This document shows, piece after piece, positions 51,556-55,790 of a stretch of 64,000 bases of DNA (its first letter is position 1; the number at the start of each line of letters is the position of its first letter). The notes under the pieces were generated by a model that saw only the letters and a list, made by a program, of their open reading frames with translations, did no database searches and was not told the DNA's origin. The position numbers and the translations under genes are program-made. This DNA comes from an uncultured Thermoleophilia bacterium (GTDB taxonomy: Bacteria; Actinomycetota; Thermoleophilia; UBA2241): positions 41,940 through 105,939 of the forward strand of contig CAVPRQ010000020.1 in assembly GCA_963707855.1 (NCBI GenBank), read 5' to 3'.

Positions 51556-53028
51556 TCACTCGCGCAAGCCGAGCTCCCGTTCCGCTTCGTCGATGATCGC
51601 TCTCAGCTTCTCGGGCACGCCTTCTGGCAGCGGCTCGGGCTGATGCGTCTCCAGGATCCGCCTGGCCTCTGCCACGGAGCGCTCGTAGATGCTGGTCGAC
51701 CCCGAGGCGGTCCAGTCCTCCCGGACCCTGCGGTCGATGAGCTTCGACTGCGACTGGCTACGCATGCCCTTGAACGTGTCGTCGTGCGAGAGGAAATCGC
51801 TGAAGGGCCCGATGTCGGCGATGACGTCGACCGAGAGGGTCTCGTCGTCGACGCGGATACCGGGGACGCAGTACTTGACCATGCGCGCGAACTCGGCGTC
51901 CATGACGAGCTGCGCGTAGTCGATGGTGACGCCCGACTCCAGCATCCCCAGCCCGTAGATCAGATTGGCTCCTGCCAACGCCGGTAGGAGGCTGGTGATC
52001 GTCTTCTCGTGGCCGGATTGGGCGTCTGCCACTTTGGAGTCGCCCTACGCCCCCGCGACCCAGCTGGGCAGGAGGTAGAACCGCGCCAGGCAGGCGACCC
52101 CGGCGCCGATCATGCCGCACTCGGGGCTGCCGACGGACGCGCTGGCGAAGCGCAGGTCCATGGCCGTCGTGGACGAGCCATAGATGACAGGCGTACCGCG
52201 GACCGTGAGTTGCGCGAGCGTGATCCCGGCGAGGACCTCGGCGTTGTGTGACACGAGCGTCCCCGCGAGATTGACCGGGGATGATCCTCCGGCCATCGCC
52301 ATCGACAGGACGTTGACGGGGATCCCGCCGCGGGCGCCCTCGATGATGATGCGGCAGCAGTCGGCGACGAGCTTGAGCGGGCTCACCGGGCAGGTCAGGA
52401 AGGAGAGGATCGGCCGCTGCCGCAGGCGTTCGTGGCCGCCGACGATCGCCGCCGCCATGTCGATCATCTTACGGGCGCAGAACCCTGACAGCGGGCCGAT
52501 GGTCGCGTGCTTCGTCGTGTTCGTGAAGATGGCCTCGGCGTTGTGCAGGGCCGCGGTGTCCTGAGGGACGTCATGGGCGCCGAGCGGGCGCTCGACGACG
52601 TCGATCTCGGGCAGCGCGTCGATGATCCGCGTGCAGTCGGCGACGTCCTGCTTGCGCGACTCGTGCAGCTCGCCCGTGTACGGGTCGACGACCTGGATGC
52701 CCTCGCCGAAGTTCGTGAAGCCGACACGGCCGTCCTCGAGCACCACGTCCTGCTCCGGAACACGTCCGCACATGACCACCTTGGGAGGCGCCGAGCGGAT
52801 CGCGTCCTCGACGACGTGCGGGGCGAGGCGTACCACCTTGCGTTCGCGGTCGACCCTGGCGCCCCCGCCCTCGAAGATCGCGAGGGCCTCGTCGTCCTCG
52901 ACGAAGACTCCCGTCTGTGACAGGACCTCGAGCGTCGCGAGGTGGATCTCCTGCAACTCGTCGGGGGTGAACACTTCGAGCCTGAAGCCGCCGCTCTTGC
53001 GCGCGCCCGCGCGGGGGTTGCGTCTCAT
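51556..53028 (-). CDS. mttB: trimethylamine:corrinoid methyltransferase MttB, pyrrolysine type (one in-frame UAG read-through)
   Basis: ORFs 52045..53028 and 51556..52032 share a frame and are separated only by TAG. ..[131 protein letters not shown].. No frameshifts. Confidence 0.9.
52045..52047 (-). other. in-frame UAG (predicted pyrrolysine codon) of mttB
   Basis: Minus strand reads ..GTC GCG GGG GCG TAG GGC GAC TCC AAA GTG.. The TAG aligns with Pyl in Methanosarcina MttB (..YVAGS-O-SDAKVPDDQAGHEK..). Confidence 0.85.
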
Positions 53029-53666
53029 GTCGCGCCTCCGCCCAGCAGCGCGTCGATCTTCTTGACGCCGTCGTTGGCGTCCTCGGCGTAGGCGTCGGCG
53101 CCGATCTGGTCGGCCCAGCGCTGGGTGGCGGGAGCGCCGCCGACCACGGTCTTGAAGGAGAGGCCCTCCTCCTTGATCACCTTGATGACCTTCTTCTGCT
53201 CCTCCATCGTCGTCGTCAGGAGGGCGCTCATGCCGATGATGTCGGCGTTCCCCTCCTTGGCCTTGGCGATGAAGGTCTGGGCGGGGACGTCGCGGCCGAG
53301 GTCGGTGACCTCGTAGCCGTTGGCCTTGAGGTAGGCGATCACGATCGCCTTGCCGATGTCGTGCACGTCGCCCTGCACGGTGCCGATCACGACGCGTCCC
53401 TTGGTGGTCGCCGCGCCGGCCTCGAGGGCGGCGTTGGTGACCGCGGTCGCCCCCGCCATGGCGTCGGCGGCCATCATCAGCTCGGGGAGGAACATCTCGC
53501 CGCTCTCGAAGAGCTCGCCGACCTCCTGGATGCCGCGCACGAAGCCGTTCTGCATGATGTCGGCGGGGGTCATGCCCGCGGCCAAGGCACGCTTGGCGAT
53601 GTCTTCGGCGGCCGCACGGTCGGCGCCCACGATCGCCGCGCTGGCTTCCTGATAGATATCGGACAT
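53025..53666 (-). CDS. mttC: methyltransferase cognate corrinoid protein (MttC-like by adjacency)
   Basis: The ATG at 53666 is preceded by AGGAGG at good spacing. ..MFLPELMMAADAM..VIGTVQGDVHDIGKAIV.. (DxHxxG B12 motif) ..IIGMSALLTTTM..VVGGAP.. The stop overlaps the mttB start (ATGA). Confidence 0.85.
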   Translation of the reverse strand: MSDIYQEASAAIVGADRAAAEDIAKRALAAGMTPADIMQNGFVRGIQEVGELFESGEMFLPELMMAADAMAGATAVTNAALEAGAATTKGRVVIGTVQGDVHDIGKAIVIAYLKANGYEVTDLGRDVPAQTFIAKAKEGNADIIGMSALLTTTMEEQKKVIKVIKEEGLSFKTVVGGAPATQRWADQIGADAYAEDANDGVKKIDALLGGGAT

Positions 53667-53715
53667 GAGCATTGCCTCCTCGGGGCGGGATGTCGGATCG
53701 TCGTCCTGGGCCGTT

Positions 53716-54342
53716 CTACGCCACCAGCGCCTTGGCCTTGTCGACCGCGGCGGCGGCGTTGGCGCCGTAGCCGTCGGCGCCGATCTCGTCGGCGTAGGCC
53801 TGGGTCACCGGGGCGCCGCCGATCATCACGCGGACGGTCGCGCGCAGGCCGGCGTCCTTCAGGGCGGCGATCGTGGCCACCATCTTGGGCAGCGTCGTGG
53901 TGAGCAGGGCGCTCATGCCGATGATCTGGGCCTGGTGCTCGGCGACTGCGGCGACGAACTGGGCCGGGGTCACCCCGGTGCCGAGGTTGACGACCTCGAA
54001 GCCGGCGCCGGCGAGCATCATCCCGACGAGGTTCTTGCCGATGTCGTGCAGGTCGCCCTCGACGGTGCCGATGACCACCGTGCCGAGGCTCATCGAGTCG
54101 CCCGCGGCCATATGCGGCCGGAGGAGGTCGAGGGCGCCCTGCATGGTGCGCGCGCTGAGCAGCACCTCGGGGATGAAGCAGTCGCCGGAGCGCATGCGCT
54201 CGCCGACCACCTCCATGCCGGGCAGGAGCGCGCCCTCGAGGATCTCGCGCGCGCTGGCGCCGCTCGCGAGGAGCGCGGTGGTGAGGGCGTTCACGGTGCC
54301 CGCGTCGCCCTCGATCAAAGCCTGCTTGAGCTGGTCTTTCAC
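53716..54342 (-). CDS. mtbC: methyltransferase cognate corrinoid protein (MtbC-like by adjacency)
   Basis: GTG start follows GGGAG. ..CFIPEVLLSARTM..VIGTVEGDLHDIGKNLV..IIGMSALLTTTLP..MIGGAPVTQAYADEIGADGY.. Confidence 0.85.
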   Translation of the reverse strand: MKDQLKQALIEGDAGTVNALTTALLASGASAREILEGALLPGMEVVGERMRSGDCFIPEVLLSARTMQGALDLLRPHMAAGDSMSLGTVVIGTVEGDLHDIGKNLVGMMLAGAGFEVVNLGTGVTPAQFVAAVAEHQAQIIGMSALLTTTLPKMVATIAALKDAGLRATVRVMIGGAPVTQAYADEIGADGYGANAAAAVDKAKALVA

Positions 54343-54394
54343 GAATGGCTCCCTTGTGTGGCGGGGCGCCCGCAGTGGGCGTCGAGCTCCGCCG

Positions 54395-55790
54395 TCAGTT
54401 CAGTCCCGTCCGCTCCTTGAAACGCTCGACGCAGTTGATCGGCACGTCGAGCACCCGGGCGATGTTGAACTTGGCCTCGATGAGGTTCGCCTGCCACGGG
54501 TGACTGATGGCGTAGCTGTGGATGCGGCCGAAGCCGTGCTCGCTGCGGATGTCGGTCATCACCGCCACGTCGGAGAGGTCGAACGGCGTCACGCCGAGCT
54601 TGTCGGCGACGTACTGCTTGGCCTCCTTGAGGCGCATTCCGCGGGTCATCTGCATTCGGGCCACGAGATCTCCCCCGGCCCGGATACCGCCCATGCCCGC
54701 TGCCTGCGCGTGAGCGTTGTGCATCCCGTGAGGGTCGCCCGAGCCCACCTACAAGCCGTCCAGGCGCAGAAGGTCGACGCAGGCCTTGGCGCTCCGGCAG
54801 GAGGCGTCGCCCGGCGGGTGCACGAACATCGGCACCCCGCCGACGCCCATGCCGACGTTCATGTGCACGGGGATCTCGGCGACGTCCATGCAGGGCTTCA
54901 CGATGGCGATCGCGCGGGCCATGTTCCAGGCGCAGCTCTTGCCGGTGTTGACGTTGACGACCGGCCCGTACATCGTCGCCCCGGCCTTCTGCACCACCTT
55001 CATCTGCTCGAGAGGCCACATGCCGGCGAGCCGCTTGCCGTCGTACTCGAGCTGGCCGTGCATGCCGAGCACGAACTCGCCCGCCATGCCGAGCTGGACG
55101 CCCATGTCGGGGTACTTCTTGCGGATGATCTCGGTCGCCCGCAGGGTGGCCCAGAACTCGGGGTCGCCGGAGGCGCCGGTGGTGTCGAAGTCGATCGCGT
55201 CGGCGCCGGCCTCCCACATCGCGTCGGCCATGCGGACGGCGTCCGAGACGGCCATCTCGGCGGCCTCCTCGGCGGCCGCGCGCGCCTCGGGGATCTTGCC
55301 CTCGGGCAGGAGCGTCGACCAGTTCTCGCAGGGGCCGTCGTCCTTGGCGTAGAGGCCGAGGTTGGGCATGATGCCGTACTGCATCGGTGCGATCGTGCAG
55401 AGCAGGGCGTCGTGGAGGCGCTGCGCCTCGTAGGGCATGATCGTGCGGATGACCTTGAGCGAGTAGTCGCCGGGGCAGAGCTCGAGGAGGTCGGCGCCCA
55501 TCCACTGCTCGTAGGACTGCATGTCCTGGGTGCGCGTGGCGTGCGTCTTCATGCCGCTGCCGTCGCAGCTGAGGACGATCTCGTCGCCGAGGTCGACGCC
55601 GACGAAGCGCGCCGGGCTGGCGTAGATGTCGAGCGAGGTGCTCCTGCTCGTCGGCGGTGAGGGGCTCGACCTTGGCGCGCTTCACCGCCTGGGCGACGCC
55701 GTCCTCGATGTCGGCGCGGAGCTCGCTCCGCGTCATGCGGGCGATCGAGCCGTCGCCCATGCGCGTGGGTATGCGTGTCTCTCCTGTCAA
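54395..55790 (-). CDS. mtbB: dimethylamine:corrinoid methyltransferase MtbB, pyrrolysine type (one in-frame UAG) with one frameshift near 55628
   Basis: TTG 55790 follows GGAGGGAAGG. (M)TGETRIPTRMGDGSIARMTRSEL.. / ..MQYGIMPNLGLYAKDDGP..IDFDTTGASGD..GMAGEFVLGMHGQLEYDGKRLAGMWP..NVGMGVGGVPM..LRLDGL-TAG-VGSGDPHGM..AGGDLVARMQMTRGMRLKEAKQYVADKLGV.. This is colinear with Methanosarcina MtbB. Confidence 0.88.
54749..54751 (-). other. in-frame UAG (predicted pyrrolysine codon) of mtbB
   Basis: Minus strand reads ..GAC GGC TTG TAG GTG GGC TCG GGC GAC CCT.. The TAG aligns with ..VDGI-O-IGVGDPLGM.. of archaeal MtbB. Confidence 0.85.

Follow-up and report, generated by a model that had tools for sequence, protein, structure and literature searches.

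A 64 kb stretch of contig CAVPRQ010000020.1 from an uncultured Thermoleophilia bacterium, referred to here as the window, carries four adjacent minus-strand genes at 51556-55790. They encode two methylamine:corrinoid methyltransferases, each with a TAG codon within its reading frame, and two small corrinoid proteins. All coordinates are numbered on the whole window. It is highly probable from the sequence that these genes form a real four-gene operon for the demethylation of dimethylamine (DMA) and trimethylamine (TMA) by pyrrolysine (Pyl) enzymes, both substrates being predicted. The parts of the operon are listed below.

54395-55790, minus strand: mtbB, Pyl-type dimethylamine:corrinoid methyltransferase (PF09505, TIGR02368 after frame correction)
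54652-54751, minus strand: match to Rfam PYLIS_2 (RF02509), 68.7 bits (gathering score 36), starting exactly at the mtbB TAG
53716-54342, minus strand: corrinoid protein 'mtbC', 208 aa, GTG start at 54342, TAG stop at 53718-53716, motif GDLHDIG
53025-53672, minus strand: corrinoid protein 'mttC', 215 aa, ATG start at 53672, TGA stop at 53027-53025, motif GDVHDIG
51556-53028, minus strand: mttB, Pyl-type trimethylamine:corrinoid methyltransferase (TIGR02369), ATG start at 53028, TGA stop at 51558-51556
51948-52047, minus strand: match to Rfam PYLIS_3 (RF02510), 74.7 bits (gathering score 38), starting exactly at the mttB TAG

Operon layout and pyrrolysine codons

The TTG start of mtbB at 55790 lies seven bases downstream of the ribosome-binding site GGAGGGAAGG, and the gene ends with the TGA at 54397-54395. 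Gaps of 52 nt (mtbB-mtbC) and 43 nt (mtbC-mttC) separate the first three genes, while the mttC stop and the mttB start share the ATGA at 53028-53025. A scan of the operon found no terminator-like site between the four genes. In the operon and the spacer before it, scans for promoters, terminators and inverted repeats returned nothing above chance. Both corrinoid proteins contain the Pfam B12-binding and B12-binding_2 domains (cap and Rossmann domains, with the His-on motif), and both carry the DxHxxG motif in the forms listed above. The locus is one tight unit that encodes two Pyl methyltransferases together with two corrinoid carriers of the His-on type. An earlier note on this DNA had described four tightly packed minus-strand genes with an ATGA overlap, two DxHxxG corrinoid proteins, and the two Pyl methyltransferases MtbB and MttB. 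The layout and the motifs are as it described, and the Pfam matches, NCBIfam equivalog cut-offs and TAG positions given below bear out the two gene identities.

In methylotrophic methanogens, mtbB is paired with mtbC and mttB with mttC. In the window, a single operon holds the DMA and the TMA methyltransferase gene, and the two corrinoid genes lie between them. For comparison, relatives were collected by an MtbB scan that took one genome per GTDB species and gave 30 loci. The order mtbB-corrinoid-corrinoid-mttB is absent from these 30 representative loci, where the usual order is mtbB, mttB, corrinoid gene. Orthologues of the window 'mtbC' (71-79% identity) follow mtbB-mttB in three relatives (L020, L022, L023), and in another (L034) the orthologue precedes mtbB-mttB on the other strand.

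For the profile searches of MtbB and MttB, TAG was translated as X and one base of mtbB was removed to mend its frame. MtbB matches Pfam Dimeth_Pyl (PF09505) with an E-value of 3.4e-163 over positions 4-462 of 463. It also reaches 408.3 bits against the NCBIfam equivalog TIGR02368 (cut-off 369.1), a result that holds only after removal of the base. MttB scores 734.6 bits against TIGR02369 (cut-off 525), covering positions 1-469 of 469, and matches Pfam MTTB (PF06253) with an E-value of 1e-86. Each gene contains exactly one in-frame TAG before its stop, located at 54751-54749 in mtbB and at 52047-52045 in mttB. The same frame stays open before and after each TAG, with a third-position GC content (GC3) of 0.89-0.98.

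The window MttB aligns end to end with MttB of Methanosarcina barkeri (PDB 7xcl; E-value 7e-119, 46% identity), and the TAG at 52047-52045 falls exactly on Pyl334 (X334 of 7xcl_A). In the M. barkeri structure, Gly110, Met249 and Tyr364 are singled out around the pyrrolysine, and Gly110 and Tyr364 are 100% conserved in Pyl MttBs (PMC9842639). These residues align with Gly108, Met243 and Tyr358 of the window protein. Thr111 of M. barkeri, which has a described role via its main chain (PMC9842639), is replaced by Glu. The window operon thus shares several features with the M. barkeri MttB-MttC system (PDB 7xcl, 7xcm, 7xcn), namely a TIM-barrel MttB, the equivalent of Pyl at residue 334, the three surrounding residues and a DxHxxG corrinoid partner encoded adjacently. 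It differs in the modest identity of its MttB, in the absence of an mttP permease nearby in the window and in its bacterial host. Since the host is bacterial, the methyl acceptor cannot be coenzyme M via MtbA.

The Rfam matches that begin at the two TAG codons are support for orthology, not proof of an RNA element. The PYLIS_2 match probably owes as much to conserved coding sequence as to RNA structure. The context of the mtbB codon, ...DG(I/L)-O-(I/V)G.GDP..., is one that we take to resemble that of M. barkeri MtbB.

Conservation of the codon was counted over the MtbB and MttB copies in the loci fetched from relatives. TAG occupies the Pyl position in 62/62 MtbB copies and in 16/16 MttB copies at 50% identity or more. 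Of the distant MttB paralogues, the five that allowed a check carry a sense codon at this position. Beyond the TAGs, the sequence is conserved in relatives at 56-67% identity, and database MtbB homologues are uninterrupted products of 344-346 aa that end at the TAG. A stop codon kept in all of the MtbB copies and in every close MttB copy is in effect a coding codon.

Host lineage and decoding machinery in relatives

By title, the 30 MtbB loci comprise 25 from Thermoleophilia, two from Actinomycetes, one from Actinomycetota, one from Deltaproteobacteria and one second locus on a Thermoleophilia contig, with MtbB identities ranging from 56 to 98%. The best matches are MFD02979.bin.2.124 (98%, locus L006) and UBA2241 (90%), together with other MFD bins. 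An Actinomycetota metagenome-assembled genome (MAG) from Stordalen (L031) is also found among the MtbB relatives. The housekeeping protein IlvC has matches at 95-97% identity, and its best named matches are 'Thermoleophilia bacterium' at 88-89%. As MtbB and IlvC both point to Thermoleophilia, the actinobacterium-like background proposed in the earlier note is confirmed. The host is an uncultured soil or sediment member of the Thermoleophilia (Actinomycetota), and the contig appears to be a coherent piece of its chromosome. The host is probably anaerobic, a lifestyle that fits the two tungsten-type aldehyde:ferredoxin oxidoreductases (AORs), the 4-hydroxybutyryl-CoA dehydratase and the LarA encoded in the window.

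Genes for the decoding of UAG are found in several relatives. A Thermoleophilia bin (L018) carries pylSc beside mtbB (TIGR02367, 314 bits; cut-off 178). More than 100 database clusters match PylSc at 70% identity or more. NCBI names two of these pyrrolysine--tRNA ligase large subunit, one from a Thermoleophilia MAG and the other from an 'Actinobacteria bacterium' MAG. Two further loci, L038 (10001-18190) and L039 (10001-18187), hold pylSc, a corrinoid gene, a radical-SAM gene, pylSn, tRNA-Pyl, pylD, pylC and pylB within about 8 kb. All pyl genes of these loci score above their NCBIfam cut-offs (pylSn reaches 127 bits against TIGR03912, cut-off 51), and the tRNA-Pyl has the anticodon CUA. In L039 the tRNA was detected by ARAGORN and missed by Rfam even at a relaxed threshold. 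The corrinoid gene adjoining pylSc in both loci is an orthologue of the window 'mttC' (83% protein and 85% DNA identity), which links the lineage of the window with a complete Pyl system as tightly as the data at hand permit. The earlier note had placed the decoding machinery elsewhere in the genome, a proposal supported by this full pylT, pylSc, pylSn, pylB, pylC and pylD set next to a close mttC relative.

The set in L038 and L039 has an unusual layout. pylSc comes after a cell-wall amidase gene, whose end it overlaps, and is followed by the mttC-like corrinoid gene and the radical-SAM gene. pylSn stands alone, and pylT lies just downstream of pylD in the one-strand order pylB, pylC, pylD, pylT. 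This arrangement differs from pylT-pylSc-pylBCD-pylSn, which we take to be the order in Desulfitobacterium. Like the Pyl systems of Firmicutes and Deltaproteobacteria (Desulfitobacterium, Acetohalobium, Bilophila), those of the Thermoleophilia relatives have a split PylSc/PylSn, pylB, pylC, pylD and a tRNA with a CUA anticodon. In contrast to them, the set is scattered over its 8 kb with a corrinoid gene in between. PylS is split into PylSc and PylSn in all bacteria surveyed (PMC9630628).

Counter-evidence and alternative readings

Several observations weigh against a working Pyl operon in this genome. As assembled, mtbB is not one uninterrupted reading frame, as its first 53 codons (from 55790) and the remainder (from 55630) lie in different frames. 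An alignment with eight relatives places one extra base within 55631-55634 (CACCTC-G[C]TC-GAC). The earlier note, while correct in its gene identities, overlooked this insertion. As that note had stated, pylTSBCD is absent from the window: neither tRNA-Pyl nor any PylS, PylB, PylC or PylD homologue was found there, and ARAGORN detected no tRNA genes of any kind in the 64 kb. ARAGORN and a hand-made anticodon-loop pattern also found no tRNA-Pyl in the window or in 35 loci around mtbB homologues. The presence of pyl genes in the window's own genome is therefore proposed by analogy with its relatives. The same applies to methyl transfer beyond the corrinoid proteins. A by-eye reading of high-GC3 frames, not an exhaustive HMM scan, saw no methylcobamide methyltransferase (MT2) of the URO-D or pterin-binding type, no RamA and no MttP-like permease in the window, in agreement with the earlier note.

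Further points concern the codon, the corrinoid proteins and the closest relative. TAG is the normal terminator of 5 of the 31 window genes, including mtbC within the operon, so UAG must be read only in part or under regulation. The host resembles other Pyl bacteria in that the codon is not fully reassigned. The names mtbC and mttC, which the earlier note had used as labels, are positional only, as sequence cannot assign either corrinoid protein to a substrate. The 208-aa 'mtbC' has its best NCBIfam matches to MtgC_2 (212 bits) and pyl_corrinoid (184 bits), both below the cut-offs. The 215-aa 'mttC' passes only the generic pyl_corrinoid model TIGR02370 (221 bits; cut-off 215.3). Against the MtbC equivalog NF041607 (cut-off 350), the two proteins score 220 and 185 bits. 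Finally, the closest MtbB, that of L006, lies in a different gene context, and no identical genome was found.

Two side observations belong here. If the mtbC TAG at 53716-53718 were read through, the protein would be longer by more than 120 residues, up to the next stop in that frame. The mtbB of MFD02979.bin.2.124 (L006:10001-12787) is 97% identical in DNA to its counterpart in the comparison with window 49504-55781, and is followed directly by a LarA-like gene of only 78% identity with no corrinoid genes or mttB between them. This pattern suggests that mtbB copies have recently undergone rearrangement or gene conversion.

The frame break in mtbB is not an isolated case. At least nine of the window genes that were checked change frame mid-gene, namely those for LarA, TetR, AOR, IlvB, AbfD, IlvC, SerA, an aminotransferase and a non-Pyl MttB. 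Examples lie at 49467-50823, 50859-51496, 29343-30560, 43270-46100 and 57700-58016, and the LarA gene is in three pieces. A by-eye estimate gives further breaks at about one per 3-4 kb of window. The nearest relatives are long-read bins (MFD* and 'contig_N' names) with the same split genes, and the breaks in the window fit an unpolished long-read assembly of a high-GC genome. Because housekeeping genes are among those broken and none of the eight aligned relatives has the extra base, the mtbB frameshift is probably an assembly error, although sequence alone is no proof of this. Programmed +1 frameshifting was considered and rejected, as the extra base occurs in no relative.

If the frameshift were real, the operon might be decaying. 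The pyl genes would have been lost or never present, the TAGs would be plain stops, and the genes would be pseudogenes or encode truncated proteins. Such a reading could draw on a frame break that is specific to the window sequence, on the lack of pyl genes within 64 kb and on the ordinary use of TAG as a stop. It is nevertheless improbable, because damage that strikes housekeeping genes alike indicates assembly error rather than selective decay. The intact high-GC3 frames on both sides of each TAG, the conservation of the regions past the TAGs and the retention of TAG in every MtbB and close MttB copy also speak against it.

A functional Pyl operon could also be foreign to its surroundings. 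Pyl systems are patchily distributed, and the bacterial ones are thought to be archaeal in origin (PMC11764691). Gene order around mtbB also varies between close relatives, as the different flanks of the L006 copy illustrate. It is still very unlikely that an unrelated actinobacterial chromosome recently took up the operon by horizontal transfer, be it from Firmicutes, Deltaproteobacteria, methanogens or another source. The nearest MtbB, MttB and corrinoid homologues, at 56-98% identity, come almost all from Thermoleophilia and other actinobacterial MAGs, the sole exception being one Deltaproteobacteria-labelled MAG contig with copies at 55-56% identity, and M. barkeri MttB is more distant again. 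The comparison of composition that the earlier note had proposed revealed no difference between operon and flanks: the GC content of the operon (0.689) and its GC3 (0.91-0.98) are indistinguishable from those of gdhA, guaA and ilvD of the window. Moreover, two relatives with 95% identical IlvC (L040, L041) share the backbone order DUF302, ilvD, ilvB, ilvN, S-methyltransferase, ilvC, aminotransferase, serA, followed immediately by a single Pyl-type mtbB. An ancient transfer into the class may have occurred. That the contig is chimeric or misbinned, with an operon foreign to the organism supplying the rest of the window, can hardly be entertained. Synteny with L040 and L041 does stop after serA (at about 46 kb), before the operon block. 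However, GC is even along all 64 kb, both halves of the window have Thermoleophilia best matches, and LarA adjoins mtbB in L006 as well. The lineage of MtbB and IlvC, the matching GC and GC3, and the ilv-serA synteny together argue that the contig is neither chimeric nor recently invaded, and they leave the earlier note's hint of horizontal origin or misbinning unsupported.

Proposed route, neighbouring genes and significance

In the preferred reading of the locus as a working Pyl operon, MttB would take a methyl group from TMA and MtbB would take one from the resulting DMA. The pyrrolysine of each enzyme, encoded by its single in-frame UAG, would bind and activate the amine on its pyrroline ring. 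The two small DxHxxG proteins, whose genes lie between those of the methyltransferases, would then receive the methyl group on their Co(I) corrinoid. A pylT/pylSc/pylSn/pylBCD system at another site in the genome would decode the UAG codons. An MT2, also encoded elsewhere, would pass the methyl group on, most likely to tetrahydrofolate, and corrinoid that had become oxidised (Co(II)) would be reduced again by a RamA-type activase, likewise encoded at another site. Tetrahydrofolate is the bacterial methyl acceptor with MtgA and MtqA in the glycine-betaine and quaternary-amine systems. The substrates, the pairing of corrinoid proteins with enzymes and the methyl acceptor are proposed on the model of characterised methanogen and bacterial systems.

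For a survey of neighbouring genes, 345 reading frames from 33 relatives' loci were clustered and the cluster representatives were scanned against Pfam. Neither MT2 nor RamA was found as a recurrent neighbour in these loci. The recurrent neighbours comprise MttB-family genes, TetR/BetI regulators, ABC transporter parts, metallo-beta-lactamase-fold proteins, a PIN-domain protein, aldolases and an amino-acid-permease frame fused to a corrinoid cap. In the window itself, a homocysteine S-methyltransferase-like gene at 34944-35510 was considered as methyl acceptor and rejected. It is part of the conserved ilv backbone in relatives without this operon, and thus probably serves ordinary methionine metabolism.

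The genes flanking the operon in the window are the following.

50859-51496, plus strand: TetR/BetI-type regulator, split by a frameshift (TetR_N 50859-51128 and TetR_C_6 51161-51493 in different frames), convergent with mttB
56480-58016, plus strand: non-Pyl MttB-superfamily methyltransferase (Pfam MTTB, E-value 1e-56, positions 29-435 of 500), divergent from mtbB
59755-62238, minus strand: second non-Pyl MttB-superfamily gene (about 60649-62220), then a third corrinoid gene (59755 to about 60540)

A TetR/BetI gene recurs beside mtbB in 13 relatives' loci, and it is plausible that the window copy regulates the operon. The two non-Pyl MttB paralogues reach 261 and 271 bits, respectively, against TIGR02369, below its cut-off of 525, and the C-terminal motif of the first lies in another frame. 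The third corrinoid protein scores 217.5 bits against TIGR02370 (cut-off 215.3). Together with an Amidohydro_3 enzyme and a DAO-type FAD oxidoreductase, these genes make up a second corrinoid methyltransferase cluster at 56480-63195, adjoining the operon, which is probably a demethylation system for quaternary amines or other N-methyl compounds. The region from 51.5 to 63.2 kb, operon and second cluster combined, looks like a general methylated-amine island. Non-Pyl MttB systems, such as MtgB/MtgC/MtgA of D. hafniense and MtcB, MtpB and MtyB of E. limosum, follow the same three-component logic, and two such paralogues with a corrinoid protein stand next to the operon. The operon MttB differs from them in its Pyl codon and in passing the TMA equivalog cut-off that its neighbours miss.

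Pyl use in this lineage has been recorded before. PylRS was found in two Actinobacteria among 81 bacterial genomes (Guo et al., PMC9630628). In Stordalen Mire peat, transcription of Pyl-encoding mttB and mtbB is reported for some Actinobacteriota MAGs (Ellenbogen et al. 2023, PMC10805028). The genus RBG-16-64-13 was among the most active methylotrophic bacteria there, and the supplement places this name in the class Thermoleophilia (PMC10805028). The earlier note had considered the genomic background unusual for Pyl use. The contig instead falls in a lineage already known for Pyl methylamine genes from these two studies and from the NCBI PylS entries in Thermoleophilia MAGs. The Stordalen genes come from the same phylum, very probably the same class, and represent the same two Pyl methyltransferase types. 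That study was a marker-gene screen, however, and described no operon structure or pyl genes (PMC10805028). The literature search found no paper treating pyrrolysine with Thermoleophilia in substance. Since the system type and its presence in Actinomycetota are already on record, the operon is a good example and not a new kind. New are the resolved operon, its connection with a scattered pyl cluster in a relative, and the scale of mtbB duplication among Thermoleophilia.

Copies of mtbB are numerous in this class. Thermoleophilia MAGs carry up to four or five of them in 15-21 kb, interleaved with Pyl and non-Pyl mttB, and all keep the TAG. Loci rich in mtbB paralogues are L014, L019-L030, L034 and L035 (for instance L028:108-12673 and L022:5009-20883). 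It is a speculative and rather doubtful idea that soil and sediment Thermoleophilia are major, overlooked Pyl users with expanded Pyl enzymes, some of them acting on new amine substrates, and with a methyl route other than the classical acetogenic Wood-Ljungdahl pathway. With no MT2 or RamA gene near any examined cluster, the methyl groups may feed such a route.

In wetlands and sediments, TMA and DMA serve as precursors of methane, and demethylating bacteria compete there with methylotrophic methanogens. To our knowledge, Actinomycetota is a phylum without a cultured Pyl user. The operon and the full pyl cluster of its relative offer a concrete target for expression and biochemistry, and actinobacterial PylRS/tRNA-Pyl pairs are candidates for genetic-code-expansion work. 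The understanding of how Pyl methyltransferases work is left unchanged by the operon.

Other features of the window lie apart from the methylamine genes. Two regions, at 16775-23263 and 47637-49470, contain the two tungsten-type AORs, an iron alcohol dehydrogenase, a 4-hydroxybutyrate CoA-transferase and the 4-hydroxybutyryl-CoA dehydratase, a gene set that fits anaerobic fermentation of 4-hydroxybutyrate or 4-aminobutyrate. An M-box (magnesium) riboswitch (RF00380, 144.9 bits) is located at 3891-4062 on the minus strand, directly upstream of an MgtE-type transporter gene at 2548-3915 on the same strand.

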